From the NCBI RefSeq assembly GCF_003019035.1, contig NZ_CP027447.1: a DNA stretch of 64,000 bases. One strand, written 5' to 3'. A program made the translations under genes and the position numbers. Shown here piece by piece: positions 44,018 to 64,000 of this stretch (within the stretch, counting starts at the first letter, position 1; each line of letters starts with the position of its first letter). A model generated the notes under the pieces. The model saw only the letters and a list, made by a program, of their open reading frames with translations, had not been told where the DNA came from and did not search any database. The stretch is from Escherichia coli (GTDB taxonomy: Bacteria; Pseudomonadota; Gammaproteobacteria; Enterobacterales; Enterobacteriaceae).

Positions 44018-44024
<7 letters not shown>

Positions 44025-44709: not shown

Positions 44710-45383
44710 TGCGCCTATAAGGCTCTCTTACCAGCCGCGCCCTAACAGGCGCACACGATCTGACATTTGCATCCAACTTCGTTACTTACGGCCCGTAAAC
44801 GGGCTGCCCGGATAGGGAATCGATAACTGCTCTCCCATTTTATCCTCTTCAAGCTGGTGCTTTATGTAATCCTGTATCTTCGCCGTGTTCTTACCCACCG
44901 TATCGACGTAATACCCTCTGCACCAGAACTCCCTGTTCCTGTATTTGAATTTCAAATCAACAAACTGCTCGTAAAGCATTAGACTGCTTTTCCCTTTCAG
45001 ATATCCCATAAAGCCGGATACGCTCATTTTGGGCGGGATCTCCACAAGCATATGGATATGATCTGCACAGCATTCAGCTTCCAGAATCCGTACACTTTTC
45101 CACTCACACAGCTTTCTCAAAATACAGCCTATTGCTCTACGCTTCTCTCTGTAGAACACCTGTCTTCGGTATTTTGGCGCAAATACTATGTGATATTTAC
45201 AGTTCCATCGGGTGTGCGCTAAGCTCTTTTCGTTCCCCATTGGGACCCCCTTTTGATTTCTTGTTTGACACTTGCAGTTGCCAGACCGCAAGGTGTTTTA
45301 ACAAATCAAAAGGGGTTTTAATAACTGGCTCAAAGCTGAAAGCTTTCCGGAACCCCCAGCCTAGCTGGGGGTTTTCTGTGCAC
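44710..45383 (-). mobile_element. IS200-type insertion sequence (IS200/IS605 family); boundaries approximate (about +/-40 bp)
   Basis: Contains a tnpA almost identical to my memory of Salmonella IS200 TnpA, plus the characteristic upstream stem-loops (cccccagctaggctggggg; RBS-occluding hairpin). No terminal inverted repeats are expected for this family. Confidence 0.8.
44782..45237 (-). CDS. tnpA: IS200 transposase TnpA (HUH / Y1 family)
   Basis: MGNEKSLAHTRWNCKYHIVFAPKYRRQVFY…CCADHIHMLVEIPPKMSVSGFMGYLKGKSS…; HxH motif present; ORF track begins at an upstream in-frame Met. Confidence 0.9.
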   Translation of the reverse strand, partial: GNEKSLAHTRWNCKYHIVFAPKYRRQVFYREKRRAIGCILRKLCEWKSVRILEAECCADHIHMLVEIPPKMSVSGFMGYLKGKSSLMLYEQFVDLKFKYRNREFWCRGYYVDTVGKNTAKIQDYIKHQLEEDKMGEQLSIPYPGSPFTGRK

Positions 45384-45437: not shown

Positions 45438-46421
45438 TTACTTCACGTTGTAATTACGCAGAGCGTTACGCCCCAACACAATCCCCGCGCCCACCATACC
45501 GCCCAGCAGCACTGCCAGAATCAAGGTGATTGCTTTCTTCGGGCTATCGCGACGAATTGGCAGTGTGGGTTTCATAACGTAACGGTAGGCATGAATATCA
45601 AGATCATCAACCTTCAGACTTTCGATATCCAGCAGGTTTTGACGAGTCTGATAATAGTTTGGCGAGAACACAAGCGGACGAGTCGCTTCGTGCTTAATCA
45701 TCGACCCCAGTGCTTCGCTACCTAACAAAAGCAACGTGTCCTGAGTAATATTTTCACCAGTCTGCTGAATCTGCGGCTTTGTTACCTGCGCCTGATTCGC
45801 ATACTGCAACGCTTCCTGAATCTGGCGGATACGCAGCGTTTTTTGCTCCTGAGCCACCACTTCCTGAGTTTTCAGGGAATCCTGCAATGTTTTCATGCCC
45901 AACGCAATATTATCCTTCAGGTCCTTTTCCAGCTCTTCATTCACTCGGTCATCAACTTGTTGAATGTATTCAGCCAGCTTTTTCTGTGCATCCGCCGCCG
46001 TTTTCCCAACATAAGAAACAGCTAACGGTAACGGCTGGTTTTTAACAGCGGGCTCGATGGTCAGTTTTTCGCGTTCTTCCTGATTATCCAGCGTTTCCGC
46101 TAATGCAGAGAAAGCGGAACTGAAGCGACCAATCAACGCCTCCTGTAAATCAGCTACTTTTGGCGCAGCCTGGCCATAAATTACATTCATGGCGTTGTTA
46201 TAGCCGGCAATTTGCCCCACATCAGGTTGAGTGACAATGGCTGTTGATGTCCATTGCTCTTTCGCTACTGCCAGGTATCCAATAGCCAACACGATAGCCA
46301 CAATGACTGTGGCGATAATGGTCATCTTACCGCGCCACAGTTGTACCAGTAAATCAATTAAATCAATCTGTTCCGGGTCATTGTTGTGCCCAGAAATATT
46401 ATTATTTTCAACTTTCATCAT
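45438..46421 (-). CDS. wzzB: O-antigen chain-length determinant (polysaccharide co-polymerase)
   Basis: 327-aa ORF with two TM segments flanking a periplasmic coiled-coil region; very similar to my memory of E. coli WzzB (Cld). Confidence 0.9.
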   Translation of the reverse strand: MMKVENNNISGHNNDPEQIDLIDLLVQLWRGKMTIIATVIVAIVLAIGYLAVAKEQWTSTAIVTQPDVGQIAGYNNAMNVIYGQAAPKVADLQEALIGRFSSAFSALAETLDNQEEREKLTIEPAVKNQPLPLAVSYVGKTAADAQKKLAEYIQQVDDRVNEELEKDLKDNIALGMKTLQDSLKTQEVVAQEQKTLRIRQIQEALQYANQAQVTKPQIQQTGENITQDTLLLLGSEALGSMIKHEATRPLVFSPNYYQTRQNLLDIESLKVDDLDIHAYRYVMKPTLPIRRDSPKKAITLILAVLLGGMVGAGIVLGRNALRNYNVK

Positions 46422-46562
46422 TACCCTAACAGACGGAAAATTTCAGGTCGCCATAGTTTAGCGATAATCTGTATGAATGCCATAGGATAAACAATAAATA
46501 TAATGAATTGTTACATGAACATAGATACCAACTACCGCCAAAAATCATCTGATTACAGATAG

Positions 46563-47729
46563 TTAGTCGCTACCGAAAAGATCGCGGGTGTAGACCTTGT
46601 CTGCTGCATCTTTAAGCTCTTCTGACATTCGATTAGAGATAATGACATCAGCCTGTTGCTTAAAAGTCGCGAGATCACGTTCCAGACGTGAATTGAAAAA
46701 CATTTCTTCCTTCATTACCGGTTCATAGATAATCACTTCTACCCCCTTAGCTTTGATACGCTTCATGATCCCCTGAATGGAAGACGCACGAAAGTTATCT
46801 GAACCGCTCTTCATAATTAGGCGATATATCCCTACGACTTTTGGTTTACGCGACAAGATAGCATCGGCAATAAAGTCTTTGCGGGTACGGTTAGCTTCAA
46901 CGATGGCAGAAATGATGTTATTTGGCACAGACTGGTAATTTGCCAGAAGCTGCTTGGTATCTTTCGGCAAACAGTAACCACCGTAACCAAATGATGGATT
47001 GTTGTAATGGTTGCCGATACGAGGATCAAGACAAACACCTTCAATGATTTGACGGGTGTTCAATCCTAGGCTTTCTGCATAACTGTCCAGCTCGTTAAAG
47101 TACGCCACGCGCATTGCAAGGTAAGTATTGGCAAACAGTTTAATGGCCTCTGCTTCTGTTGAATCAGTAAACAGAGTCGGGATATTTTGCTTAATCGCCC
47201 CTTCCTGTAATAACGCGGCAAAACGCTGTGCACGTTCAGAACGTTCGCCGATCACAATACGGGAAGGATGAAGGTTATCGTAAAGGGCTTTGCCTTCTCG
47301 GAGGAATTCAGGGGAGAAAATGATGTTCTCAGTCTTGAATTTTTTTTGCATTGCGGCCGTAAAACCTACCGGAACCGTGGACTTAATAATCATTACGGCA
47401 CAAGGATTTATTTCTGTAACATCTTTAATTACTGATTCTACGCTAGATGTATTGAAATAATTGGTTTTCGGATCATAGTCGGTCGGGGTTGCGATGATTA
47501 CATAATCAGCATTCCGGTAGGCTTCTTTTTTATCTAATGTGGCCTTAAAACGTATTTTGTCTGATTGCAAAAATTGCTGAATTTCTTTATCAACAATAGG
47601 AGATATCCGATCATTTAGCATTGCAACGCGAGATGGCAAAATATCTAATGCTACAACGTTATGATTTTGTGCGATTAATAGCCCATTAGACAGGCCAACA
47701 TAACCGGTTCCGGAAATGGTGATTTTCAT
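46563..47729 (-). CDS. ugd: UDP-glucose 6-dehydrogenase
   Basis: 388-aa ORF with N-terminal Rossmann fold ([16 protein letters not shown]…). Confidence 0.92.
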
Positions 47730-47914
47730 TTCATGCTCTCAGAATTAACTTAACTATGAATCATGATGTTTTAGCACCCTGATAAGAGTTAAAAGTTTTA
47801 ACGCCACGATGATGTCTAGTCAACGAAACGAAAAACATTTCAGATTTTCTTTATAAGAATAGCTGCTATTTATTAAGTTAGTATTAAGCAATGAAATTAA
47901 ATCAATAAGATTGA

Positions 47915-47949
47915 TAGCAAAAAAAAGCCCGGCGATAAATGCCGGGCCT
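47915..47949 (-). terminator. Candidate gnd terminator
   Basis: Minus-strand hairpin gcccggcatttatcgccgggc followed by ttttttt. Confidence 0.55.
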
Positions 47950-47973
47950 TAGTTTATTACTGATTAAATCAGA

Positions 47974-49380
47974 TTAATCCAGCCATTCGGTGTGGAATAC
48001 ACCTTCTTTATCAATGCGCTTATAGGTATGTGCACCGAAATAGTCACGCTGCGCCTGGATCAAGTTTGCTGGCAGTACTGCGGCACGATAGCTGTCATAA
48101 TAAGCAACCGCTGCAGAGAAGGTAGGTACTGGAATGCCGTTCTGCACCGCATAAGCAAGAACATCACGCAGAGCTTGCTGGTAATCGTCGGCAATTTTCT
48201 TAAAGTACGGGGCTAACAGCAGGTTAGCGATCTTCGGATTTTCAGCGTAAGCATCAGTGATTTTCTGCAGGAACTGAGCGCGGATGATACAGCCAGCACG
48301 GAAGATCTTCGCGATTTCACCATAGTTCAGATCCCAGTTGTACTCTTCAGACGCGGCACGTAGCTGTGAGAAGCCCTGAGCGTAAGAAACAATCTTACCC
48401 AGATAAAGCGCACGACGAACTTTCTCAATGAACTCAGCTTTATCGCCTGCTGGTTGTGCTTGCGGACCGGACAGTACTTTAGACGCTGCAACACGCTGCT
48501 CTTTGAGAGAAGAGATGTAACGTGCAAACACTGATTCAGTGATCAGTGACAGAGGCTCACCGAGATCCAGTGCGCTCTGGCTAGTCCACTTACCAGTACC
48601 TTTGTTAGCTGCCTCATCCAGAATCACATCGACCAGGTAGTTACCGTCTTCATCTTTTTTGGTGAAGATATCTTTAGTGATGTCGATCAGGTAGCTGCTC
48701 AGTTCACCGTTGTTCCACTCGGTAAAGGTTTGTGCCAGTTCTTCGTTAGAGAGATTCAGACCACCTTTCAGCAGAGAATAGGCTTCAGCAATCAGTTGCA
48801 TATCACCGTATTCAATACCGTTGTGAACCATCTTCACATAGTGACCTGCGCCATCGGCACCAATATAGGTAACGCACGGTTCGCCATCTTCAGCCACGGC
48901 GGCGATTTTGGTCAGGATAGGTGCAACCAGTTCATAGGCTTCTTTCTGCCCACCAGGCATGATAGAAGGTCCTTTCAGCGCGCCCTCTTCACCACCGGAA
49001 ACACCCGTACCGATGAAGTTAAAGCCTTCTGCAGAAAGCTCCCGGTTACGACGAATAGTATCCTGGAAGAAGGTATTACCACCATCAATGATGATATCTC
49101 CTTTATCGAGATATGGTTTAAGGGAATCAATAGCAGCATCCGTGCCTGCACCTGCTTTCACCATTAACAGGATGCGACGAGGCGTTTCCAGAGATTCAAC
49201 GAACTCTTTCACCGTATAGTAAGGAACCAGTTTCTTGCCTGGATTTTCAGCAATCACTTCTTCCGTCTTTTCACGGGAACGGTTGAAAATAGAGACGGTA
49301 TAACCACGGCTTTCGATGTTGAGCGCGAGGTTGCGTCCCATCACTGCCATACCGACGACGCCGATCTGTTGCTTTGACAT
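47974..49380 (-). CDS. gnd: 6-phosphogluconate dehydrogenase (decarboxylating)
   Basis: 468-aa ORF ([42 protein letters not shown]…). Confidence 0.94.
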
Positions 49381-49573
49381 TGTTTACTCCTGTCAGGGGT
49401 GGTCACCGCGGGGTTGCGCGGCTTGAATATGAAACAGATGTTAACTCAAGTTACATGAATGTGTGTAGTGCTGAATTTCATTAATGCAACAAATACCGTT
49501 CATCTTCCTTTATACAGACATCCACTTGTAACCAAACCTACGCGCACATATAAGCGAAGATAAATCTATAACA

Positions 49574-50998
49574 TCAAGAAATTAAAGATATAATATTCCC
49601 AAGCACATTCGTAACATATTGCTTAGCCTGATTTTCATCACTGCCTTCAGCGTAACAACGGAGTTCAGGGGCATTTCCGGAAGGACGGAGATGTATAATA
49701 TCACCATTAGTTAAAATAAATCTTGCACCATCCGTTTCATCAATAGTGGAACAGGATAATGATTCATACCCTAATTTATTAAAGAAATTATTGGGTGATG
49801 AAATGGCATTTTTTATAATTTTCTGACTTGACTCTGAAGGAAAGTTTTTCACTCTATCTGACCAAGTGAATCGCTGTGGAAGATTATTAACCAGTTGAGA
49901 GATAGTACTATTGCGAGAAGCTATTAAGAGCATTAACGCTGGTAATACTGCATCTCGAGTAGGTAACGCATTTAATTCTTTGCCATTAATTTGTAAATCG
50001 GAGGCAAGCAGAAAACCGCCATTAGCTTCAAAACCAGCGACTGAATCAAATTGTTTAGCAAGTTCTGAAAACGCTGCAATCACATAAGGAGAGCCAATTT
50101 TAGTCCGTTGTATATTTGCAAATTTATGAGATTGTTCAATTGCTGTATTACAACTCACTGGAATAGCCAACGCCTTGATATTAAGTTCAATAGCCGTAAG
50201 TAATCCCAGAATATCGCCTCTTAGCCATTCACCATTTTCATCGGCAACTAAAGGGCGATCACCATCACCATCTGTTGAGAAAATTGCATCGAGATTGTAT
50301 TTTTTAGACCACTCTCTTGCAAGTAGACGATCTTCTTCGCTAACTGCTTCCGTATCAATAGGAACGAACTCATCACTTCTACCGAGGGAGATGACCTCAG
50401 CACCCAATTGATTAAAAAGTGGAGCATATAAATCTCGTCCTGCACTAGAATGTTCATAGATCCCAATTCTCTTCCCCTTTAAAATATCGGAATTAAAAAG
50501 AGAAACATAACGTTCCAGGTAGCAATCCGCACCTTGAGTACTTGTTTCAAGATGAGGTAATACATCTACAGGAGAAAAAACATATTCACTATTTACTATT
50601 GCTAACTCATCCTCTTTTGTGATTTCACCATCTGGACGGTAAAATTTCAAACCATTACGGTCAAAAGGTATGTGACTACCGGTAACCATTATGCAGGGGA
50701 TGTTTTTCTGTATGGAATAATGAGCTAATGCAGGGGTCGGAATTACACCATGATATTCAACAGCGAACCCATGTTGTTTGATAGCGAACGCGCATGCCTG
50801 AGCAATTTCATAACTACTCGGGCGGTTGTCAATGGCTAAAGCAACTTTATTAAAATTGTATTTGTCATCAATAACAGAAAGAAACGCATGACTGAAGGCT
50901 GCACAAACATCATGGGTAAAATCGATGACTAAACCACGAGCACCACTAGTGCCGAAAGCAATATTGCTATCGGTAATGATTTTGTTAGCATTTAACAT
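49574..50998 (-). CDS. manB: Phosphomannomutase
   Basis: 474-aa phosphohexomutase-family ORF (…CIMVTGSHIPFDRNGLKF…); first gene on the gnd side of the AT-rich O-antigen cluster. Confidence 0.85.
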   Translation of the reverse strand: MLNANKIITDSNIAFGTSGARGLVIDFTHDVCAAFSHAFLSVIDDKYNFNKVALAIDNRPSSYEIAQACAFAIKQHGFAVEYHGVIPTPALAHYSIQKNIPCIMVTGSHIPFDRNGLKFYRPDGEITKEDELAIVNSEYVFSPVDVLPHLETSTQGADCYLERYVSLFNSDILKGKRIGIYEHSSAGRDLYAPLFNQLGAEVISLGRSDEFVPIDTEAVSEEDRLLAREWSKKYNLDAIFSTDGDGDRPLVADENGEWLRGDILGLLTAIELNIKALAIPVSCNTAIEQSHKFANIQRTKIGSPYVIAAFSELAKQFDSVAGFEANGGFLLASDLQINGKELNALPTRDAVLPALMLLIASRNSTISQLVNNLPQRFTWSDRVKNFPSESSQKIIKNAISSPNNFFNKLGYESLSCSTIDETDGARFILTNGDIIHLRPSGNAPELRCYAEGSDENQAKQYVTNVLGNIISLIS

Positions 50999-51003
50999 GA
51001 TGA

Positions 51004-51750
51004 TTACTTCTTAATAAATTGAGGAAGTTTGGATAGATTTTTATACGCTAAAGCTATTGGCCAGATAATACCATTCTGTTTCATAGCGCGAATATCTTCC
51101 ATTGATTTATTGATCATGGAAGATACTGAGCGATTGCTAATTCCACCAACACGCATTTTCACTAATACTTTTGGTAAGTACGCTATTGAAATACGCTGTT
51201 TTAAAATATAACGTAATAATGAGTCATAATCAGCAGATATTCGGTAATCTAATGAAAAACAACCAAACTGACTATAACAATCGCGTTTCATATAAAATGA
51301 TGGGTGTGGCGGCATCCAACCTAGTTTCATCTTCAAACGGCTAAATGAGCCACTCTTCCATAATCTAATACGTTTAGTTGTATCATTTTTGGCAACATAC
51401 TCCAAATCACCATAAACAGCATCACACCCTGAACTTTCAAATGTTTTTACTATATCTGCAATAGCATCGTCATAAGCAAGTAAGTCATCAGAGTGCAAAA
51501 ATCCAATTATATCACCAGAAGCTGCTTGAATACCTTTATTCAGTGCATCATAAATGCCATTGTCGGGTTCGCAAATGATTGTTGAAACTCTTGTACATTT
51601 ACTCTTGATTAGCTCTATTGTATTATCTTTCGATGCCCCATCTACAACTATATATTCAATATCTGAATGTGTTTGTTTTTCCAGAGAGAGTAATGTATCA
51701 AGAAGCGTTTTTTCACTATTATAAGTTGCTGTGATAATTGAAATCCGCAT
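51004..51750 (-). CDS. Family-2 glycosyltransferase (GT-A fold)
   Basis: 248-aa ORF with MRISIITATYNSEKTL…VVDGASKDNT…DNGIYDALNKG…, a typical GT2 signature. Confidence 0.75.
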   Translation of the reverse strand: MRISIITATYNSEKTLLDTLLSLEKQTHSDIEYIVVDGASKDNTIELIKSKCTRVSTIICEPDNGIYDALNKGIQAASGDIIGFLHSDDLLAYDDAIADIVKTFESSGCDAVYGDLEYVAKNDTTKRIRLWKSGSFSRLKMKLGWMPPHPSFYMKRDCYSQFGCFSLDYRISADYDSLLRYILKQRISIAYLPKVLVKMRVGGISNRSVSSMINKSMEDIRAMKQNGIIWPIALAYKNLSKLPQFIKK

Positions 51751-53156
51751 TAGTATCCAACTCCAGAAGAAGAAACTCTTATAACATCATCCTCTTCCAA
51801 GTAGACTCCTGATCTAACCTCAATTATTTCAAGTGGGATCTTGCCAGGATTTTCAATGGCATGTGGAACACCAACAGGTATATATGTTGATTCATTTTCT
51901 GAAACAAGATAAGTTTTCTCCTCAAGATGAACTTTAGCTGTCCCCGAGACAACAATCCAATGTTCAGTACGATGGTAATGGATCTGCTTAGCGGTAATGT
52001 GACCCGGTAATACAATCACATGTTTAACCTGAAAGCGTTGCCCTTCAGCTATAGTGTCATGACTGCCCCAAGGACGAAAAATTTCCCGATGTTGTAAATA
52101 TTCTGTTCGATTATTCTTTTTAAGCTGAGCTACGATGTTTTTAACTTGCTGAACTTTATCTTTATGAGCAACTAATACTGCATCTTTCGTTTCAACGACA
52201 ACCAAATCCTTTACGCCCACGGCCCCAATAAGTCTATGCTGCGAATAAAGATAACTATCTGTAGCATCCTCAACCAAAACATCACCACGAATGGCATTGC
52301 CGCTTTGGTCTTTTGAACTTATTTCCCACAGCGCAGACCATGACCCAACATCACTCCATTGCGCATCCAATGGTACGACCACAGCTTCAGCTGTTTTTTC
52401 CATAACGGCATAGTCGATTGACTCTTCAGGGCAGCAAGAAAAAGAAGAGTTATCCAAGCGGATAAAATCTAAATCTTGAGTCGAGGAAGCTAAGGATTGC
52501 TGACAACTCTCTAGAATATCTGGACGGAATTTTTTTAGTTCATCGATGAATACAGATGCTCTGAACATAAACATTCCACTATTCCAAAGATAACCGCCAT
52601 CTGACAAATACCGCTGAGCTAATTCTAGCTCTGGCTTTTCAACAAAAGCTGCAACTTTATAACCTTGCCCACTAAGTGGATCACCTGACTTAATATAGCC
52701 ATACCCTGTCTCTGGAGCTGTTGGAACGATGCCAAATGTGACCAACTTACCTTGCTGCGCAAAGTCCTTCGCGGCCAAAACTGCTGTAATGAAACTATTC
52801 TCATCCTGAATTTCATGGTCAGCCGCAAGAACCAAAAGTATAGGATCCTCTCCACTTGCCGTTGCCTGAAGCGCTGCAAGGGCTACAGCAGGTGCCGTAT
52901 TGCGCCCAACAGGCTCAAGCAAAATCCCACTATGCTTTAAACCAACTTTACGTAATTGTTCAGCAACAATGAAACGATGTGATTCATTACAAATGATCAA
53001 AGCAGGATTGTGTTCAATCTTTTCTAGCCGTCGCAAAGTCTCTTGCAACATAGTTAAGCGGCTATTTAAAGACAGAAATTGTTTCGGATAAAGTGTACGT
53101 GAAAGAGGCCATAATCTGGTACCAGATCCACCGGCCATGACAACGGGAAGTAGCAT
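51750..53156 (-). CDS. manC: Mannose-1-phosphate guanylyltransferase (with C-terminal cupin domain)
   Basis: 468-aa ORF ([28 protein letters not shown]…). Confidence 0.88.
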   Translation of the reverse strand: MLLPVVMAGGSGTRLWPLSRTLYPKQFLSLNSRLTMLQETLRRLEKIEHNPALIICNESHRFIVAEQLRKVGLKHSGILLEPVGRNTAPAVALAALQATASGEDPILLVLAADHEIQDENSFITAVLAAKDFAQQGKLVTFGIVPTAPETGYGYIKSGDPLSGQGYKVAAFVEKPELELAQRYLSDGGYLWNSGMFMFRASVFIDELKKFRPDILESCQQSLASSTQDLDFIRLDNSSFSCCPEESIDYAVMEKTAEAVVVPLDAQWSDVGSWSALWEISSKDQSGNAIRGDVLVEDATDSYLYSQHRLIGAVGVKDLVVVETKDAVLVAHKDKVQQVKNIVAQLKKNNRTEYLQHREIFRPWGSHDTIAEGQRFQVKHVIVLPGHITAKQIHYHRTEHWIVVSGTAKVHLEEKTYLVSENESTYIPVGVPHAIENPGKIPLEIIEVRSGVYLEEDDVIRVSSSGVGY

Positions 53157-53161
53157 ATCTA

Positions 53162-53623
53162 TTACCTTGATATAAAATAATTTTTGGTATATTGATGAAC
53201 TGTAGTGCTATTAAGCAACGTTACTACATCAAACCACTTGTAGGAATTATGCTGAATCGTTGGTAGGCGAAGTTGCTGCGGATTAATTTGAATTTCATAT
53301 CCATGCACTACGTAGTGTGTAGAAAAATCTACTTCAGAAAAATTGTCATTGTAAAAGTGTTCATACACACCAAGAAATATGGCCTCACCAAGACTAGTTT
53401 GAACGCCTAACTCTTCAAATGTGATCCTTTTAAAAGCATCCTCGAATGACTCGTCCTTAAAAATTCGCCCTCCAGGCACAAACCAATAATTTTTTGCGGG
53501 GCGATTCAGGCGCTGCCCAAGCAGCGCCTCTCCTTTATCGTTTCTAATTACGAGGTCAATCGAGATTAGAGGAGTATGCTTGACTATTGTTTTAAATAAC
53601 TCATATTCTAATCTCTTTTTCAT
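53162..53623 (-). CDS. gmm: GDP-mannose mannosyl hydrolase (NUDIX)
   Basis: 153-aa NUDIX-family ORF adjacent to fcl and gmd. Confidence 0.75.
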   Translation of the reverse strand: MKKRLEYELFKTIVKHTPLISIDLVIRNDKGEALLGQRLNRPAKNYWFVPGGRIFKDESFEDAFKRITFEELGVQTSLGEAIFLGVYEHFYNDNFSEVDFSTHYVVHGYEIQINPQQLRLPTIQHNSYKWFDVVTLLNSTTVHQYTKNYFISR

Positions 53624-53625
53624 AA

Positions 53626-54591
53626 CTATCCCCGAAAAGAATCAATATTCTCAAGAAACCATTTATATGTTAATGATAGACCTTCATGTAAATTATAGCG
53701 ATGTTGCCAGCCCAAGTTTTTGAGTCGGGTAACGTCCATAAGTTTTCGCGGGGTGCCATCTGGTTTGGTCGCGTCAAAAACAATTTTTCCTTGATAACCC
53801 ACTACAGAAGCCATTGTTTCAGCCATTTCACGTATAGAACAATCCACCCCCGTACCTACATTAATATGAGATAACATTGGTTGTGTATTTTGTTGATAAA
53901 TTGCGTCCTCTAACTCCATCACATGAACCGAGGCAGCAGCCATATCATCAACATATAAAAACTCACGCATCGGCATTCCCGTGCCCCAGACAATAACTTC
54001 TTGTGCACCACTTTCTTTTGCCTCATGGAATCTACGCATAAGCGCCGGAATAACATGGGAGTTTTCAGGATGGAAGTTATCATTCGAACCATAAAGATTA
54101 GTAGGCATTACACTTCTATAATCGCGACCATATTGACGATTATAAGACTCACATAATTTTATGCCCGCAATCTTAGCAATTGCGTATGGCTCATTAGTTG
54201 GCTCAAGTATGCCCGTCAAAAGTGCAGACTCTTTCATCGGCTGCTCAGCAAATTTTGGATAAATACAGCTAGAGCCTAAAAAAAGTAATTTTTGAATTCC
54301 AACCTTGTGAGCTGAATGTATAATATTACTCTCAATCATGAGATTCTGATAAATGAATTCTGCTGGAAATGTATTATTGGCATAAATACCACCTACTTTT
54401 GCCGCAGCAAGATAAACCTGATCAACCCTCTCTCTCTCAAAAAATGCCTCAACATCCTTCTGCACGGTCAGATCGAGTTCTTTGTGTGTTTTAACCACTA
54501 ACTCGATATCATCACGCAGCGATAATTGTCGGCAAATAGCAGAGCCAACCATGCCCTGGTGCCCAGCAACATATACTCTTTTCTTTATCAT
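53626..54591 (-). CDS. fcl: GDP-L-fucose synthase (GDP-4-keto-6-deoxy-D-mannose 3,5-epimerase / 4-reductase)
   Basis: 321-aa SDR ORF ([23 protein letters not shown]…) directly downstream of gmd. Confidence 0.85.
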
Positions 54592-54594
54592 GTA

Positions 54595-55728
54595 TTAACG
54601 CTCCAGAGAAACCGAAACATCATAACCATGGCTTTTAAGAAGTGCATGTTGTTTCGCTTTTAACAAATCGCTAGCAACCATTTCTGCACACATCTCTTCA
54701 ACTGTAATCTCTGGTTCCCAGCCTAATAGATTTTTTGCTTTTGCAGGGTCACCTAAGAGTGTTTCAACTTCAGCAGGACGGAAATAACGAGGATCAACCC
54801 GAACTATAACGTCTCCAACATTTACACCAATAGCACAATCGGAAATTTTATTAACTACTGTGGCTATCTCATCTACACCCTCACCAGAGAATTCAAGTTC
54901 AAGTCCGACTTCTTTAGCAGCCATACGGACAAATTCACGCACAGATATCTGTTTACCTGTGGCAATGACAAAATCCTCTGGATGATCTTGCTGAAGCATC
55001 ATCCATTGCATGCGAACATAATCTTTAGCGTGTCCCCAGTCACGCAACGAATCCAGATTACCCAAATATAAGCATTGTTCGATCCCCTGAGAAATATTAG
55101 CTATTGCACGAGTAATTTTACGGGTAACAAAAGTTTCTCCACGGCGTGGCGATTCATGGTTAAAAAGAATACCATTACAAGCATATATACCATAAGATTC
55201 ACGGTAGTTAACTGTTATCCAGTAAGCATACATCTTAGCTACAGCATAAGGCGAACGCGGGTAGAATGGAGTTGTTTCACGCTGAGGAATCTCTTGCACT
55301 AAACCAAAAAGTTCTGAAGTAGATGCTTGATAGAAACGTGTTTTTTTCTCCAGCCCACAGATTCGTATTGCTTCTAATAAACGTAATGTCCCTATTGCAT
55401 CTACATCTGCTGTATATTCTGGTGACTCGAATGACACTGCGACATGGGATTGTGCACCAAGGTTATAAATTTCATCCGGTTGAATTTCTTGGATTAAACG
55501 GATCAGATTCGATGTATCTGTTAAATCCCCATAGTGTAAAATAAAATTAGGCTCATCAACGAATCGTGATTGATATATATGATCAATTCTATCAGTGTTA
55601 AATGACGATGCTCGGCGTTTTATACCATGTACTTCATAACCTTTTTCAATAAGAAATTCTGCAAGATATGAACCATCTTGTCCAGTTACGCCTGTGATAA
55701 ATGCAACTTTTTTATTCATTTTAATCAT
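54595..55728 (-). CDS. gmd: GDP-mannose 4,6-dehydratase
   Basis: 372-377 aa ORF (…[20 protein letters not shown]…[18 protein letters not shown]…); start is either MIKMNKK or MNKK. Confidence 0.9.
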
Positions 55729-55737
55729 GTTATGTTC

Positions 55738-56769
55738 CTAAATATTCAACTCATTATAAACTTTAATCGTTTCATTAACACATTTTGACCATGAAAATTT
55801 TTGCGCCTGCAGTAAACCTCTTTCGATCATAACATTTCTTTTTAAATTAACTAATTCTAAAGCTTCTTTTAACGTAAACTCATTAATATCATCAATATAA
55901 ATAGGCGCATTCCCCCCTACTTCCGGCAACGAGGATGTGTTTGCACAAATAACTGGACATCCGGCCTGCATAGCTTCTAGGACAGGTATTCCAAACCCCT
56001 CATAACTGGAAGGGTAAACAAGTGCATATGCAGTATTATACTGTATATTTAAATCTTCATTACTCAAAAATGTAAAATGTTCATATCTATTTTTTAAATA
56101 TTTTTCAAGGAGTTCTCTTTCATATTTTTTAAGCGAGCCTCCGCCTACAATTGTAAGCTTTAAGCCATGTAATTTCCCTACAGCTTTGACTGCAAGAACG
56201 AAATTTTTATAACCTTCTCTGGCACCGACAAACAAAACTGAATTATTTACTCTCATATCAGACATGTTAGAAATATGTTTATATGATGGGGATACACCAT
56301 TATAAATCACTCTAATTTTATCTTCGCTAATTGGACAGTACTTAAGTAAATCTCTAGCAGTGTTGTTTGAAATACAAATTACGATATCACTATTCTTGAT
56401 AGCATGATATTTTTGAAGAGAATGAATAAATTTTGACATTCCTCCCCTGTATTTTTCATAGGTGAAATCATGAACAGTTGTAACATTTTTCACATTCAAA
56501 TTAGGACTTTTATGAACTCGATAATAACTTGAGTGTAAAACCCTAGTTTTAATATCACTTACATTTCTATATCTTTCTAAAATTCTTGGCTTACGATATT
56601 GCAACTTTAAGTCGCTTGTATCAAACTCAAATTCTTTATTTTTATACAATAGAATTTCAGCTTGGTAATTTGATTTCACCATTCCTTGGATCAACTCATT
56701 AAAGTATACACTTATTCCACCAAATGATTGGAGATTATAAATAATCCCATCGATAGTTACCATTATCAT
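55738..56769 (-). CDS. Family-4 (GT-B, retaining) glycosyltransferase
   Basis: 343-aa ORF with C-terminal EX7E-type motif (…YPSSYEGFGIPVLEAMQAGCPVI…). Confidence 0.8.
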   Translation of the reverse strand: MIMVTIDGIIYNLQSFGGISVYFNELIQGMVKSNYQAEILLYKNKEFEFDTSDLKLQYRKPRILERYRNVSDIKTRVLHSSYYRVHKSPNLNVKNVTTVHDFTYEKYRGGMSKFIHSLQKYHAIKNSDIVICISNNTARDLLKYCPISEDKIRVIYNGVSPSYKHISNMSDMRVNNSVLFVGAREGYKNFVLAVKAVGKLHGLKLTIVGGGSLKKYERELLEKYLKNRYEHFTFLSNEDLNIQYNTAYALVYPSSYEGFGIPVLEAMQAGCPVICANTSSLPEVGGNAPIYIDDINEFTLKEALELVNLKRNVMIERGLLQAQKFSWSKCVNETIKVYNELNI

Positions 56770-58022
56770 CGCCCTCGCAAGGTAATACGTTCGATTAGAA
56801 CGAACAATATCAAAAAGAAGATCAGTAACAATACATATGCCGGCCCAGCAAAATAAGTTCCAAATGAAGGTGAAATGAGAATTATAGAAAGCAAAAAAAA
56901 GGATGCAGAGTTCGTAATTACTTTTGCATTAAACATTTTAAGCTTAGCAAAAATATAGCCATAAAAGATATTCATAGGTGAAAGAAAAGTTAAAATGATC
57001 AGTCCAACATATCCATAATCAACAAAATTATCCATCCCTTTTGAAAAAGCAGGTGTATGCCCCGACTCTGCAGCTCCTGGATAATAGATTTCATTTACAT
57101 GCAGAAATCCATATACAAAAGGTTTATCAGGAAACAAACCTCTCGGTATATAAGACCAAAATTGGCTGAAATAGACTGTGCCATTGAAAAACTTAACCAC
57201 ACCTTTATCAATATCTTGTAGCAAATAAATACTGTTTTGATACTGGTCAAAATAAGACAATACTACATCGACATTCATATTTCCAATAGCTAAAAATAAA
57301 TTATAGAGAATGGCACACGCTGCCAGGGGTGTAACTAAAATCAGGCCAAATTTTAGAAATCTAGATTTATTAAGACTTAACACTGCAAGATAAAAAATCG
57401 CAAATGAAAGAATAAAGGTTTTCGATCCAAGAAAAAAAACCAAGGTACAATAGAATATCGCGCATAAAAATAATTTTATTTCCGAGCGTAAAGCCAACGC
57501 CCTGGAAAAATAAGATACCGAAAGCATACTTAAAGAAAAGGCATATAAAACACCATTACCTTCTCGATAGTTTTGATAACCATCCCTGGGATTCGTCAAC
57601 CATCCAGAAATACCTATTTCTGACTTTGAAGAAAGAAGAACAAATAATGTAATAAACAGAACCAATGTAATATTTGATATTCTTTTTAATTTTGTATGCG
57701 AAATTAAGCAAGTTAAATAGATCTCTCTATTTTTGAATGCTATATTAAAAATAAAATAAAAGAAAATTATAGATAAAACACCCACAAAAGAGTATATGTT
57801 ATATATAAATAAAGCCTCATTATAATATTGATTTAAAGCAAAGTCTGAACCGTAGAAAAGAGGAGCCAAAATATTTTCCAATAGAAAAACCGGAAATAAA
57901 ATAATGGCGTAAATGGTAAAGGGATTGATAATTGTAAGTCTTAGCGTTTTCGTCGCTAATAAAGAAAAAGAATAATATAGTACTATAGCTAGTGTAACAT
58001 TTAAACAATATATTATTACCAC
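56766..58022 (-). CDS. wzy: O-antigen polymerase
   Basis: 418-aa, highly hydrophobic multi-TM ORF with a large loop, AT-rich, no recognisable enzyme motif; typical of Wzy inside an O-antigen cluster. Confidence 0.65.
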   Translation of the reverse strand: MVIIYCLNVTLAIVLYYSFSLLATKTLRLTIINPFTIYAIILFPVFLLENILAPLFYGSDFALNQYYNEALFIYNIYSFVGVLSIIFFYFIFNIAFKNREIYLTCLISHTKLKRISNITLVLFITLFVLLSSKSEIGISGWLTNPRDGYQNYREGNGVLYAFSLSMLSVSYFSRALALRSEIKLFLCAIFYCTLVFFLGSKTFILSFAIFYLAVLSLNKSRFLKFGLILVTPLAACAILYNLFLAIGNMNVDVVLSYFDQYQNSIYLLQDIDKGVVKFFNGTVYFSQFWSYIPRGLFPDKPFVYGFLHVNEIYYPGAAESGHTPAFSKGMDNFVDYGYVGLIILTFLSPMNIFYGYIFAKLKMFNAKVITNSASFFLLSIILISPSFGTYFAGPAYVLLLIFFLILFVLIERITLRGR

Positions 58023-58032
58023 ATCCTCCCCC

Positions 58033-58842
58033 CTATCTTAAACCGAATAATTTGCGCTTAATTGATTTTGTTTTTTGATATAATGCTTGAGGAACAATCA
58101 CTTTAAATAAAACTTGCAATGAATTATAGACAGCAAATTTTATTTTATATGATAAGGGCATATGAATATTATTTTTAGCTAGAATATAAGCAATTTCTTT
58201 CTTGACTAATTTTTTATTAGATTCATTTGAACTTACACCCGAAGCATCCATTATGGATACAGGAAAATTCACATAATGCATCGTAGATGGATCTATTGTT
58301 CTTATCATAAAATCACTATCAGCAGCAATTTTTAGTGTTGTATCAAAGCGATTAGCATTATCTTTAAAAAAGCTAGAATGCTGGAAAGTACCCTGATGAG
58401 GAGGAAGTGAAGGCCGACCACATTCCCACTTTTTCTTTATTTTTCCGTAAACTCCAACTATATTATCTTCATCACTAAAATATACATCACCATATATAGT
58501 TGTTGCACTCATATTTTCGTGAATGGCATTTGCTATTTTTGAAAGAGTATTATTTTCATAGAATGTATCGCCAGCTCCCATAAAAATAACCCAATCGCCA
58601 TTTATGTGAGGAAGAGCTTTATTCCAAGCGTCGTATATTCCTTGATCAGATTCGCATAAAAAATAATCTATAATATCAATATATCTATAAATATATTCTA
58701 GTGTTGATTTGTTAGAGTTGCCGTCTATAACAATCCATTGAATATTACAATAATTTTGATTTTTAATAGATTCCGCAGTCTTGCAGAAATCTTCCTCACA
58801 ATTATACGTCGATGTTATTATAGTAATCTGTAAGCCATTCAT
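58033..58842 (-). CDS. Family-2 glycosyltransferase (GT-A fold)
   Basis: 269-aa ORF with ITIITSTYNCEEDF…VIDGNSNKST…DQGIYDAWNKA…; paralogous to the 51004..51750 ORF. Confidence 0.75.
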   Translation of the reverse strand: MNGLQITIITSTYNCEEDFCKTAESIKNQNYCNIQWIVIDGNSNKSTLEYIYRYIDIIDYFLCESDQGIYDAWNKALPHINGDWVIFMGAGDTFYENNTLSKIANAIHENMSATTIYGDVYFSDEDNIVGVYGKIKKKWECGRPSLPPHQGTFQHSSFFKDNANRFDTTLKIAADSDFMIRTIDPSTMHYVNFPVSIMDASGVSSNESNKKLVKKEIAYILAKNNIHMPLSYKIKFAVYNSLQVLFKVIVPQALYQKTKSIKRKLFGLR

Positions 58843-58848
58843 CTTAAC

Positions 58849-59559
58849 TCACTTATTTTTCATGGCAATATATTTTAATCTTAATTCTTTAATTAAGGTC
58901 TTTACTTTACTATCAGTGGAATACTCAATATTAAACGTGCCAGAGACTCCTCTTATTTTGGGAATAGTTGTTCCAATAACTCCTTTTAATTTATTATTTT
59001 TAATTTGCTCAAAAAAAATGTGTTCTAAATAAACACCATCAAGGTCACGCACAGATTTATAAGAATTAGCAAAAAAGTCCCAATATATTTTTTTATTTAC
59101 AACATAAAACCTTGTATCAATCATATTTTCATTCAGAAAAGGAACTGGTATAAAAAAAGCTTTACCATTGAATGCTTTTATACATTGCTTATAATTATCG
59201 ACGTATAGTTTTGATGTTATTTTTGCGAAACTTTCAGCATTAGACAAATAGCGACTATTCATTAATGCATACTCAATTATTTCACCCTCTCCGTAACCTT
59301 TACCATAAGATTTAACACTTTCTGTATCATTTTTGAAATGTATTATCTCGATCGAATCTTTATTAAGTATTTGTTTATCATTATGAATATCTTTCGTCAA
59401 ATCATAATCACTACCATCACATATTACTATAGAATCAGCATTCTTAGACAATTCTCTTATCGCTTTCAATGTATGTAATAATCTTGAATTTTCATCAGAA
59501 AGATTTGTAAGAGGAGCATTAGGTGAGATACAAGAAGTCACTAATACTGGGATTTTCAT
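58849..59559 (-). CDS. Hypothetical protein within the O-antigen cluster (possible novel glycosyltransferase or modifying enzyme)
   Basis: About 236 aa from MKIPVLVTSCISPNAPLT… (ORF track starts at an upstream Met that would overlap wzx); no motif I can assign; soluble-looking. Confidence 0.5.
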   Translation of the reverse strand: MKIPVLVTSCISPNAPLTNLSDENSRLLHTLKAIRELSKNADSIVICDGSDYDLTKDIHNDKQILNKDSIEIIHFKNDTESVKSYGKGYGEGEIIEYALMNSRYLSNAESFAKITSKLYVDNYKQCIKAFNGKAFFIPVPFLNENMIDTRFYVVNKKIYWDFFANSYKSVRDLDGVYLEHIFFEQIKNNKLKGVIGTTIPKIRGVSGTFNIEYSTDSKVKTLIKELRLKYIAMKNK

Positions 59560-60800
59560 TTTTTCTTTTCCAGCCTCAACGAAATTAACATTAGTATAAA
59601 ATAATCGGCGGTGACTCTTGCGCTCCAGGCATAAGCCACACCTGCTACAGAAAAATACATAATTGAAAAATATAAAACTAGCAGATATGGAATACATTCA
59701 ACAAGATGAATGAGACCCGTAATTTTTGCATAACCTTTCGATTGGATTTGAGCAAATGGAACTTGAGCAAGAGAGTTGAATACAAAACCTACTAATAATA
59801 TTTGAAATATATAAGGACTCTCAGCGCTATATTGTTTTCCAAGCCATAAAGTTATAATATCACTAGCCTTCAAAGAAAACATAATAGATATAACTATACT
59901 AGTTACACTTATTAATAACGTAGCCTCTTTTATTATTTTTTTTCGCTCATTTTTTGTATTATTCTTGCATAGAGCAGGAAAAATTGTCCTTGCTATAGTT
60001 GTCGGTAATATAAGTAACTTTGAAATTGCATCCGCAGGAGCAATATATAACGAAGCTTTAGCAGGGCCAACTGCATTTGATAAGATAAATCGGTCAATAT
60101 TTGTAAGCAATGGGTTAATTATACTACTAATACTCGCCCATCCTCCAAAACTTAATAGTGCTTTTGTTTTACTTAGACTAAAATCCATTGTAAGCCTATT
60201 ATTTCTAAAAACAAAGAACACGCTTAAAAGAGCACCAGTTATTCTCGCAATCACCAATCCCAAAGTAGCATTAAGCAAACCAACATTTCCATGAATGAAA
60301 ATAACTGGTAGTAGCGCAGTTAACACACCTGTAATTGTTTTTTGTACATTTAATAATTTGAATTTTTCATATCCTTCTAATATCCCCCAACAAACCATAT
60401 TAAGAAGATAAAATGGCAGACAGTAGGATAAAACACTTATAGCATATGCAACACTTTCAGTTTGTTCCGGACCACTAATTAAGGATGCAATCTTATGGTT
60501 GCAGTAATAAAAAATTACGGATACAACAACACCAATAGATAATGTTAATAAAAATGATGTTGTAATTATTTGACTGATTGCCTTTTTGTCGTTTTTATTT
60601 AATGATATTTCACGTACAACGGCTCGCGAAAGTCCGAGATCAAATATACTTGCGTATCCAACTATTGTAAAAAACATTAAAAAAAAGCCAAAGTTAGTTA
60701 TTCCTAACTCCCTTGCCAAATACCCCATCGCAGGTATTGACAATAAAGTTGGGATTGCATACCCAGCCAAATTTATTAAACTATTTATTTTAATACTCAT
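59556..60800 (-). CDS. wzx: O-antigen flippase (MOP / polysaccharide-biosynthesis family)
   Basis: 414-aa ORF with about 12 predicted TM segments; position next to the rml genes is typical. Confidence 0.75.
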   Translation of the reverse strand: MSIKINSLINLAGYAIPTLLSIPAMGYLARELGITNFGFFLMFFTIVGYASIFDLGLSRAVVREISLNKNDKKAISQIITTSFLLTLSIGVVVSVIFYYCNHKIASLISGPEQTESVAYAISVLSYCLPFYLLNMVCWGILEGYEKFKLLNVQKTITGVLTALLPVIFIHGNVGLLNATLGLVIARITGALLSVFFVFRNNRLTMDFSLSKTKALLSFGGWASISSIINPLLTNIDRFILSNAVGPAKASLYIAPADAISKLLILPTTIARTIFPALCKNNTKNERKKIIKEATLLISVTSIVISIMFSLKASDIITLWLGKQYSAESPYIFQILLVGFVFNSLAQVPFAQIQSKGYAKITGLIHLVECIPYLLVLYFSIMYFSVAGVAYAWSARVTADYFILMLISLRLEKKK

Positions 60801-60816
60801 TTTTAATTATCTTTTG

Positions 60817-61359
60817 TCAATAATTATTTTGTATAAATGGAGTACCCAAACAATCTTTTTGTGATATAAGAGGTTCTTTGTATAATTGCCAATCTATGTT
60901 AAGTAAAGCATCATTCCAAATAATACATTTCTCATGTTCTTTTGAGTAAAAATTATTGGTCTTATACAATATTTCTGAACCTTCTTCTTTTACATAAAAA
61001 CCATGCGCAAACCCTTCCGGGATCCACAACTGGCGCTTATTCTCAGCAGACAAATTCACTCCAACCCATTTCCCAAATGTAGGTGACGATTTACGAATAT
61101 CAACCGCAACATCAAAAACTTCACCAACAACACAGCGCACCAGTTTTCCTTGAGCATAAGGTTCTAACTGATAATGCAACCCTCGTAAAACACCTTTTCT
61201 GGACTTAGAATGATTGTCCTGAACAAACTCAACCTTACGCCCTACAACCTCTTCGAAAACTTTCTGATTAAAGCTTTCCATAAAGAAGCCACGTTCATCC
61301 CCAAAAACTTTTGGTTCAAAAATCAGCACATCAGGAATTTCAGTTTTAATTACGTTCAT
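60817..61359 (-). CDS. rmlC: dTDP-4-dehydrorhamnose 3,5-epimerase
   Basis: 180-aa ORF (MNVIKTEIPDVLIFEPKVFGDERGFFMESFNQKVFEE…). Confidence 0.9.
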   Translation of the reverse strand: MNVIKTEIPDVLIFEPKVFGDERGFFMESFNQKVFEEVVGRKVEFVQDNHSKSRKGVLRGLHYQLEPYAQGKLVRCVVGEVFDVAVDIRKSSPTFGKWVGVNLSAENKRQLWIPEGFAHGFYVKEEGSEILYKTNNFYSKEHEKCIIWNDALLNIDWQLYKEPLISQKDCLGTPFIQNNY

Positions 61360-61363
61360 CTTA

Positions 61364-62242
61364 TTAATAACCTTTAATCATTTTGAGCAGATACTGACCA
61401 TAAGCATTTTTCTTCAACGGTTCGGCTAATACTTTTACCTGCTCAGCATCAATAAACCCTTTACGATAAGCAATTTCTTCCGGACAGGAAACCTTTAGTC
61501 CCTGGCGCTCTTCAATGGTGGCAATGAAGTTGCTTGCTTCAATAAGACTTTGATGCGTCCCTGTATCCAGCCATGCATAGCCACGCCCCATCATAGCGAC
61601 AGACAAACGTCCTTGTTCCATATAAATACGGTTAATATCGGTAATTTCCAGTTCACCTCGGGCAGAAGGCTTAAGGTTTTTCGCCATTTCCACAACGTCA
61701 TTGTCATAGAAATAAAGCCCAGTAACCGCATAGTTACTTTTTGGTTCCAGCGGTTTTTCTTCCAGGCTAATTGCAGTACCGTTATTATCAAACTCCACGA
61801 CACCATAGCGTTCAGGATCATTAACGTGATAAGCAAATACCGTTGCACCGATTTCTTTGTTAACAGCAGCTTCCATTAATTTTGGCAAGTCGTGTCCATA
61901 GAAGATATTATCACCAAGCACAAGTGCACAATCATCACCTCCAATAAAGTCTTCACCAATGATAAACGCTTGCGCCAGGCCATCCGGACTCGGTTGTACT
62001 TTATACTGTAGATTAAGCCCCCATTGGCTCCCGTCCCCCAACAAATGTTGGAAACGCGGTGTATCCTGTGGAGTACTGATAATAAGAATATCGCGAATAC
62101 CCGCTAACATAAGCGTTGAAAGCGGATAATAAATCATAGGTTTATCATAAATCGGCAACAGTTGTTTACTCACGGCCATAGTCACAGGATAAAGACGAGT
62201 GCCGGAACCACCAGCTAAAATAATACCTTTACGCGTTTTCAT
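61364..62242 (-). CDS. rmlA: Glucose-1-phosphate thymidylyltransferase
   Basis: 292-aa ORF ([60 protein letters not shown]…). Confidence 0.93.
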
Positions 62243-62300
62243 TTCACCATTCCTTTTAATTCATCCCGCTCTGGCATCATAAGCGAGATGCAAAAATTTG

Positions 62301-63200
62301 TTAAATTGCCGTAGTCGTAAATAATTCGTTGAGCATTCGTTTCACACCCACCTGCCAGTCAGGCAAGACAAGCGCAAAGTTCTGCTGAAACTTTTCTGTA
62401 TTGAGGCGAGAGTTATGGGGTCGACGGGCTGGTGTGGGATAGGCCGTTGTTGGCACGGCGTTAAGTTTGTTAAGAGCAAGGTTAATCCCTGCTTTGCGCG
62501 CTTCTTCAAATACCAGAGCGGCATAATCGTGCCAGGTTGTTGTACCGCCAGCAACCAGATGGTACAAACCAGCAACTTCTGGTTTGTCTACTGCTACGCG
62601 AATGGCATGAGCGGTGCAATCAGCCAGCAATTCGGCACCTGTTGGTGCGCCAAACTGATCGTTTATCACAGCCAGTTCTTCGCGCTCTTTTGCCAGACGC
62701 AACATTGTTTTGGCGAAGTTATTTCCTTTACCTGCATATACCCAGCTGGTACGGAAAATAATATGCTTCGCGCAATGTTTCTGTAACGCTTTTTCTCCGG
62801 CTAGTTTAGTTTCACCATAAACATTCAAAGGTGCTGTAGCATCCGTCTCCTGCCACGGTATTTCACCGGTTCCCGGAAATACGTAGTCAGTAGAGTAGTG
62901 AATAACCCAAGCGCCGACTTCATTAGCTGCTTTTGCAATCGCTTCGACACTTGTCGCGTTAAGTAATTGTGCAAATTCCGGTTCTGATTCCGCTTTGTCT
63001 ACTGCAGTGTGAGCAGCCGCATTAACAATAACATCAGGGCGAATTTTTTTGACAGTTTCAGCTACACCTTCGGGATTACTAAAATCACCACAATAATCAG
63101 TGGAGTGAACATCAAGAGCAATCAGATTACCCAGCGGTGCCAGAGCACGCTGCAGTTCCCAACCTACCTGCCCTGTTTTGCCGAATAGGAGGATATTCAT
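62301..63200 (-). CDS. rmlD: dTDP-4-dehydrorhamnose reductase
   Basis: 299-aa ORF ([33 protein letters not shown]…). Confidence 0.92.
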   Translation of the reverse strand: MNILLFGKTGQVGWELQRALAPLGNLIALDVHSTDYCGDFSNPEGVAETVKKIRPDVIVNAAAHTAVDKAESEPEFAQLLNATSVEAIAKAANEVGAWVIHYSTDYVFPGTGEIPWQETDATAPLNVYGETKLAGEKALQKHCAKHIIFRTSWVYAGKGNNFAKTMLRLAKEREELAVINDQFGAPTGAELLADCTAHAIRVAVDKPEVAGLYHLVAGGTTTWHDYAALVFEEARKAGINLALNKLNAVPTTAYPTPARRPHNSRLNTEKFQQNFALVLPDWQVGVKRMLNELFTTTAI

Positions 63201-64000
63201 TACTGGCGGCCCTCATAGTTCTGTTCAATCCACGACTGATAAGCACCGCTTTTCACATTCTCAACCCAATTTGTATTAGCCAGATACCATTCCACCGTTT
63301 TACGAATACCGCTCTCAAACGTTTCTTGCGGTTTCCAGCCCAATTCGCGGCTAATTTTATCGGCATCAATTGCATAACGGCGATCATGCCCTGGGCGATC
63401 AGCAACATAGGTAATTTGCTCACGATAAGATTTCTCTTTCGGGACTATCTCATCCAACAAATCACAAATAGTGAACACTACGTCGATGTTTTTCTTTTCG
63501 TTGTGTCCACCAATGTTATAAGTTTCGCCTGCTTTACCTTCGGTTACGACGGTATATAACGCTCGAGCATGATCCTCTACATACAACCAGTCGCGGATCT
63601 GATCTCCTTTGCCATAAATAGGTAATGCCTTACCTTCCAGTGCATTAAGAATAACCAGTGGAATAAGCTTTTCCGGGAAATGATAAGGACCATAGTTGTT
63701 CGAGCAATTAGTCACAATGGTCGGTAAACCATAAGTACGTTTCCATGCGCGAACCAAATGATCGCTGGAAGCTTTAGAAGCAGAATATGGACTACTTGGC
63801 GCGTATGCTGTCGTTTCCGTAAATAGCGGCAACGTTTCATTGCTATTTACTTCATCCGGATGGGGTAAGTCACCATACACCTCATCAGTAGAAATATGAT
63901 GAAAACGGAAGTTTTTTTTCTTTTCATCATCCAGACCAGACCAATAATTGCGCGCCGCTTCTAAAAGAACATAAGTACCCACAATATTGGTTTCAATAAA
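63200..64000 (-). CDS. rmlB: dTDP-glucose 4,6-dehydratase, C-terminal part (5' end beyond window)
   Basis: Reverse frame is open to the window edge; translation (…[28 protein letters not shown]…[33 protein letters not shown]…) is RmlB/RfbB-like; stop overlaps the rmlD start. Confidence 0.9.

Follow-up and report, generated by a model that had tools for sequence, protein, structure and literature searches.

The structure and the gene cluster of the Escherichia coli O36 O-antigen were reportedly published by Perepelov et al. (Carbohydr Res 2014;390:46-49). According to a review of E. coli O-antigens, O36 is one of a small number of O units whose side branch comprises two residues, and a synthesis paper gives the O36 repeat as a pentasaccharide. 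O36, O41, O156, O159 and O168 share the glycosyltransferase (GT) gene wfeY, which lies between manC and manB; α-L-fucosyl-(1→3)-N-acetyl-D-glucosamine (α-L-Fuc-(1→3)-D-GlcNAc) is common to these five serogroups, and the linkage was assigned to wfeY by structure-gene correlation (PMC10606467). The wfeY modules of O41, O156, O159, O168 and strain SD2019180 all run in the order gmd-fcl-gmm-manC-wfeY-manB and end at gnd, and the colanic acid cluster contains the segment gmd-fcl-gmm-wcaI-manC(cpsB)-manB(cpsG). Here, a 64,000-nucleotide stretch of E. coli DNA (contig NZ_CP027447.1 of assembly GCF_003019035.1; the whole stretch is called the window below) was analysed with respect to the AT-rich block at positions 49574-64000. 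This block is almost certainly the E. coli O36 O-antigen gene cluster, of the Wzx/Wzy-dependent type and located at the galF-gnd locus.

Positions 49400-64000 (14.6 kb) were searched with megablast against 5426 complete E. coli genomes. Eight full-length matches were obtained (100% of the length, 96.5-100% identity), and in 8/8 of the matching genomes wzx and wzy were annotated as 'O36 family O-antigen flippase' and 'O36 family O-antigen polymerase'. By exact-sequence look-up, Wzx of the window (414 amino acids, aa) was identical to the public 'O36 family O-antigen flippase' on 197 contigs and Wzy (418 aa) to the public 'O36 family O-antigen polymerase' on 187 contigs; among the O36-named exact-match records, one had the organism name 'Escherichia coli O36'. 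The O36 label was taken from the look-up and the genome annotation because the hidden Markov models of NCBIfam carry no O36 names; with these models Wzx and Wzy gave only weak generic matches (MOP flippase, E = 8e-22; repeat-unit polymerase, E = 5e-4). One of the eight matching genomes is that of strain 06-00048, which was reported as O36:H14 (PMC6768210). Its cluster has the same gene content and order as that of the window, where gnd is adjacent, and is 96.6% identical to it at the DNA level (wzx, 97.9%; wzy, 97.8%; remaining genes other than rml, 98.6-99.4%). In a sensitive blastn search of the complete E. coli genomes, the core wzy-GT2-ORF-wzx (GT2, glycosyltransferase family 2; ORF, open reading frame) was found in the same eight genomes only, all other matches covering at most 7% of the query at 67-68% identity. 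All O36 genomes share this serogroup-specific core with an identity of 98.1% or more. From the identity of Wzx and Wzy, the whole-block matches, the comparison with 06-00048 and the specificity of the core, the serogroup is therefore assignable, as O36; the cluster is already known and its serogroup readable from the sequence. The first-pass annotation, which had been made from the letters of the window, was wrong to call the serogroup not assignable from sequence, and the novelty that it had considered possible is removed by the full match to a known cluster. The serogroup to which wzx and wzy proved near-identical contains Fuc, as had been predicted. Compared with the E. coli O36 cluster (genotype Og36), nothing of substance differs; the rml allele is not that of 06-00048 (see below). 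The window can thus be typed in silico as O36, which has little importance beyond correct annotation. O36 is rare (8/5426 complete genomes) and includes Shiga-toxin-producing strains; several of the matching genomes are from poultry.

The block consists of 15 co-directional genes on the minus strand and adjoins gnd (Table 1). In the direction of transcription the order is rmlB (cut)-rmlD-rmlA-rmlC-wzx-ORF-GT2-wzy-GT4-gmd-fcl-gmm-manC-GT2 (wfeY)-manB, followed by gnd, ugd and wzzB. GC content is 36.9% in 49574-64000 and 30.8% in the core from wzx to GT4 (55738-60800), against 50.1% in positions 1-45000 of the window. Gene identities were checked against the annotation by RefSeq and the NCBI Prokaryotic Genome Annotation Pipeline (PGAP) of a genome with 100% identity across 49400-64000. 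The first-pass gene list (rmlBDAC, manB/manC, gmd-fcl-gmm, wzx, wzy, two GT2, one glycosyltransferase of family 4 (GT4) and one unknown ORF) and the AT-richness were confirmed, each gene at the position given for it. The GDP-L-fucose pathway is encoded in the block by manB, manC, gmd and fcl. All four genes for dTDP-L-rhamnose are present as well, three of them (rmlD, rmlA and rmlC) at full length; the fourth, rmlB, is cut by the edge of the window and is full-length (1086 nt) in a genome 100% identical to the block. The ORFs of wzx, wzy and wzzB are intact, and this inventory supports the earlier reading of a Wzx/Wzy-dependent heteropolymer. The genes for WecA, WaaL and ManA, as well as the promoter/JUMPstart region and galF, lie outside the window, galF immediately past its edge.

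The proposed biosynthesis is as follows. RmlB, RmlD, RmlA and RmlC would provide dTDP-L-rhamnose (dTDP-Rha); ManB and ManC would produce GDP-mannose (GDP-Man), which would serve as the intermediate for the formation of GDP-L-fucose (GDP-Fuc) by Gmd and Fcl. Gmm, a GDP-mannose hydrolase, is thought to balance the GDP-mannose pool. In E. coli, the genes for WecA and WaaL reside at other genomic loci, and WecA starts the unit with GlcNAc-1-phosphate. The unit would be built on undecaprenyl phosphate, to which WecA would add this first residue; WfeY would then add α-L-Fuc to O3 of GlcNAc, and the remaining three transferases (the second GT2, the GT4 and the 236-aa product of the 'unknown ORF', predicted to have a GT-A fold) would complete the branched pentasaccharide. 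Flipping of the unit by Wzx, polymerization by Wzy, adjustment of the chain length by WzzB and ligation of the chain to the lipid A-core by WaaL would follow. Four transferase-like genes together with WecA account for five residues, which matches the pentasaccharide. The order of sugar addition after Fuc and the identity of the enzyme using dTDP-Rha are those parts of the scheme that we infer. The unit of four to five sugars with L-Fuc that had been predicted from the gene content agrees with the O36 pentasaccharide, its two-residue side branch and its α-L-Fuc-(1→3)-D-GlcNAc disaccharide; the literature thus confirms that O36 contains fucose.

Some points weigh against this explanation of the block as the O36 cluster. 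In all eight complete O36 genomes, wzy is flagged as 'frameshifted' by PGAP. Expression of the O36 antigen by this strain would be deduced from the genotype, and the presence of the rml genes would predict L-rhamnose (Rha) as a component of the repeat. A full-text literature search for the O36 sugar composition yielded nothing beyond the Fuc-GlcNAc linkage; mannose (Man) is a possible further component.

The GT2 gene that separates manC from manB had been regarded as an insertion into a colanic-acid-like sub-cluster. Its position was confirmed, and it is no oddity, being the named gene wfeY known from five serogroups. The resemblance to colanic acid holds for the GDP-L-fucose pathway genes, which are the same and in the same relative order, and extends to these genes only: the embedded transferase of colanic acid, WcaI, is encoded between gmm and manC, whereas in O36 WfeY is encoded between manC and manB, and the two clusters occupy different loci of one genome. 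WfeY (248 aa) matched the GT2 fucosyltransferase WrtF (PDB 9omh) with E = 8.8e-23 over residues 3-215 (phmmer); similarity to WcaE, the GT2 of colanic acid that is a suggested fucosyltransferase and a homologue of both GT2 proteins of the window, was restricted to the N-terminal 100 residues (BLASTP, E = 4e-18). Five residues (Asp66, His142, Asn143, Asp167 and Phe/Tyr191) were reported to be conserved in the five known enzymes WrtF, WbdO, WcaE, Bf4306 and GtfD (PMC12595478). In the HMMER alignment, WfeY retains the equivalents of WrtF Asp66 (guanine-binding), His142 and Asp167 (general base), i.e. 3/5 of these group-invariant residues, with substitutions Asn143 to Pro and Phe191 to Met; both Asp of the G-A-D-D (DxD) site of WrtF are kept, as H-S-D-D. 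Judged by its sequence, WfeY is a member of the GT2 fucosyltransferase group with WrtF, WbdO and WcaE, and the solved structure of its homologue WrtF supports the assignment of WfeY as an α-1,3-fucosyltransferase. The two enzymes differ in their linkages, as WrtF from Rhizobium tropici makes a (1→4) linkage to glucose (Glc) and WfeY was assigned (1→3) to GlcNAc; the C-terminal acceptor domain gave no alignment.

The second GT2 (Table 1) and WfeY are paralogous, with 28% identity in a full-length alignment (E = 5e-26). The second GT2 is 26% identical to WcaE over 231 residues and matched WrtF in the PDB with E = 8e-10; its NCBIfam hit to WcaE was below threshold. The motifs P-P-H and (S/A)-A-D, which correspond to His142 and Asp167 of WrtF, occur in both GT2 proteins of the window. 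Because they are kept, the second GT2 may also use a β-linked 6-deoxy-L-hexose donor, either GDP-Fuc or dTDP-Rha.

The 'unknown ORF' of the first-pass annotation is present, with one correction: the protein does not correspond to the longest ORF (282 aa), which begins at an upstream ATG, but has 236 aa, with its ATG at 59559. This start overlaps the stop codon of wzx (ATGA). No significant sequence match to the 236-aa protein was found in Pfam, NCBIfam, PHROGs or the PDB, neither with the single sequence nor with a profile. The Pfam GT2 model (PF00535) gave E = 0.17 only and matched no member of the alignment, and hhalign against WfeY gave E = 0.07. A match to casein kinase II beta (E = 0.0027) was rejected as a chance hit. 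Homologues were numerous (243 at E ≤ 1e-3); in the best 120 of the 243, every name given by the source was 'hypothetical protein'. An alignment of 36 sequences of the family contained the invariant motifs C47-D48-G-S50, G86-K-G-Y-G-E-G-E-I94 and D148-T149-x-F151 as well as E179 in an (L/I)-E motif. The predicted structure of the protein is confidently of the GT-A (nucleotide-diphospho-sugar transferase) fold. Structure comparison scores were 13.2 for the chondroitin polymerase K4CP, 12.9 for WrtF and 12.5 for hyaluronan synthase; among nucleotidyltransferases, GlmU scored 13.2 and IspD-type enzymes about 12. The predicted structure was also used for a Foldseek search of the PDB. In AFDB50, the label GT2 is carried by an almost identical entry from E. 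coli and by many of the close structural neighbours. A DxD motif after strand 4 was not found in the family when located by secondary-structure register (no 3D superposition): K113, T115, K117 and N122 are conserved there, with no acidic pair. The secondary-structure register, which is the sole source for this point, suggests a metal-independent GT-A variant; GT-A enzymes of this kind without DxD exist, e.g. WrtF (PMC12595478).

In 7/8 of the homologue-carrying contigs that were inspected, the gene of the 236-aa family lies inside a surface-polysaccharide locus. Members of the family occur in Enterobacteriaceae, Vibrio, Shewanella and numerous metagenomic bacteria, in loci for O-antigen, capsule or lipooligosaccharide. 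Among the loci compared (window, L008, L010-L015), the homologue was located directly downstream of wzx in four and directly downstream of an ATP-binding cassette (ABC) transporter gene in two more. Co-occurrence with rml, considered as a hint at a rhamnosyltransferase, was seen in 4/9 loci only; GDP-Fuc genes or genes for GT10/GT11 fucosyltransferases were present in 5/9. With these mixed neighbourhoods, therefore, no donor sugar can be inferred.

The 236-aa ORF probably encodes the fourth glycosyltransferase of the cluster, because four GTs in addition to WecA are required for the pentasaccharide and the cluster has only three others; catalysis as a glycosyltransferase would be deduced from the structure model. 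That the protein is instead a sugar nucleotidyltransferase or another nucleotide-binding enzyme, one of the recognised GTs then being bifunctional, is unlikely. GlmU and K4CP score alike against the model, but the family has no N-terminal G-x-G-x-R/K signature of sugar nucleotidyltransferases in the alignment, the nucleotide-sugar pathways of the cluster are already complete, the close AFDB neighbours are annotated as GT2 and the homologues are found among GT genes in polysaccharide loci; the missing DxD is matched by known metal-independent GT-A enzymes such as WrtF. With the protein read as a glycosyltransferase, the 'hypothetical protein' of the O36 cluster can be re-annotated as a probable glycosyltransferase. 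More tentatively, it may stand for a family of GT-A-fold glycosyltransferases that is widespread and undescribed and has neither a Pfam or NCBIfam model nor a DxD; if true, the protein would make one of the three O36 linkages that have no assigned enzyme.

The integrity of wzy was analysed by translation of all frames and by alignment with full-length homologues. It is very improbable that the strain is O36 by genotype with wzy as a pseudogene, i.e. semi-rough with one O unit per core. Apart from the PGAP flag mentioned above, which is also set in two genomes 100% identical to the block, this possibility draws on three of the eight complete O36 genomes (the L003 type), in which two single-T deletions in homopolymers truly break the frame (T5 to T4 at window positions 57506-57510 and T8 to T7 at 57432-57439), and on other public assemblies whose annotation lists Wzy as fragments of 181 and 232 aa. 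In the window, however, the T5 and T8 runs are retained and wzy is an uninterrupted ORF of 418 codons with a GTG start; its product aligns without gaps to a 418-aa homologue from Escherichia (88% identity) and shares 61% identity with a 426-aa homologue from Buttiauxella across 96% of its own length, and identical Wzy is annotated as intact on the 187 contigs found by look-up. The pseudogene was rejected for the window on this basis, and wzy was concluded from its reading frame to be presumably functional. The RefSeq 'frameshifted' flag looks wrong for O36 wzy alleles like that of the window. The L003-type alleles could represent a wzy-defective O36 lineage, homopolymer sequencing errors or slippage.

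Divergence within O36 is concentrated in rml. The window rml genes (60817-64000) are 87.8-92.4% identical to those of 06-00048, compared with 97.8-99.4% for all other cluster genes; relative to the L003 lineage, rmlC is 100% identical and rmlA, rmlD and rmlB are 94.5-97.2% identical. This points to recombination in the flank, with junctions that would lie at the 5' end of the cluster. The mosaic architecture of the O36 cluster is typical: both the rml block and the gmd-fcl-gmm-manC-wfeY-manB module recur at ~88% DNA identity in several other E. coli clusters, whose central regions differ. The wfeY-module clusters other than O36 have unrelated central wzx, wzy and other GT genes, and not all of them contain rmlBDAC. 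A novel or hybrid O-antigen cluster of no named serogroup, for which this modularity and the low rml identity to the O36:H14 strain might speak, deserves next to no credence, as the sequences of Wzx and Wzy coincide exactly with those of O36-named proteins, the conserved core is present in all O36 genomes and absent elsewhere, the gene order is that of a strain reported as O36, and divergent rml alleles within one serogroup mean flank recombination, not a new serogroup.

A related cluster was found on a Buttiauxella noackiae-like metagenome contig (L010, 3961-20720), which is fully syntenic (galF-rmlBDAC-wzx-ORF-GT2-wzy-GT4-gmd-fcl-gmm-manC-GT2-manB-gnd). Identity to the window is 64-76% at the DNA level, 61% for Wzy and 51% for the 236-aa protein. 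The synteny suggests that the same or a similar O-antigen may occur across genera. Wzy with 88% identity was also found in other Escherichia (P0001), and a Wzy fragment came from E. marmotae (P0004).

Table 1. Genes of the O36 O-antigen block and its conserved flank, with window positions.
Gene and product	Positions	Strand	Basis and remarks
rmlB (rfbB), dTDP-glucose 4,6-dehydratase, first gene of the operon	63200..64000	-	ORF and PGAP; 801/1086 nt in the window, cut by the edge
rmlD (rfbD), dTDP-4-dehydrorhamnose reductase	62301..63200	-	ORF and PGAP
rmlA (rfbA), glucose-1-phosphate thymidylyltransferase	61364..62242	-	ORF and PGAP
rmlC (rfbC), dTDP-4-dehydrorhamnose 3,5-epimerase	60817..61359	-	ORF and PGAP
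wzx, O36 O-unit flippase, 414 aa	59556..60800	-	Exact match to O36-named protein; sub-threshold MOP-flippase similarity
'Unknown ORF', 236 aa, GT-A fold, probable fourth glycosyltransferase	58849..59559	-	Predicted structure
GT2 glycosyltransferase, 269 aa, WfeY paralogue, WcaE/WrtF-like group	58033..58842	-	Sequence comparison
wzy, O36 O-antigen polymerase, 418 aa	56766..58022	-	Exact match to O36-named protein; GTG start, intact
GT4 (retaining, GT-B) glycosyltransferase	55738..56763	-	PGAP 'glycosyltransferase family 4 protein'; many sub-threshold GT4-type NCBIfam hits
gmd	54595..55719	-	ORF and PGAP
fcl, GDP-L-fucose synthase	53626..54591	-	ORF and PGAP
gmm, GDP-mannose mannosyl hydrolase (Nudix family)	53162..53623	-	NCBIfam NF011963, 201.9 bits vs cut-off 146; PGAP
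manC, mannose-1-phosphate guanylyltransferase	51750..53156	-	ORF and PGAP
wfeY, GT2 α-L-fucosyltransferase (assigned)	51004..51750	-	Literature assignment and WrtF homology
manB, phosphomannomutase, last gene of the cluster, next to gnd	49574..50998	-	ORF and PGAP
Conserved flank (gnd to wzzB)	45438..49380	-	ORFs and annotation of related genomes
gnd	47974-49380	-	ORFs and annotation of related genomes
ugd	46563-47729	-	ORFs and annotation of related genomes
wzzB, chain-length regulator	45438-46421	-	ORFs and annotation of related genomes; intact

Downstream of the cluster, an IS200C-type tnpA (44782-45240, minus strand) lies between hisIE (44018-44629) and wzzB and is also present in related O36 genomes. 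The window therefore stems from a related yet distinct genome: its wzzB is intact, whereas that of the two genomes sharing the entire O-antigen cluster at 100% identity is interrupted by ISVsa5 (IS4-like).

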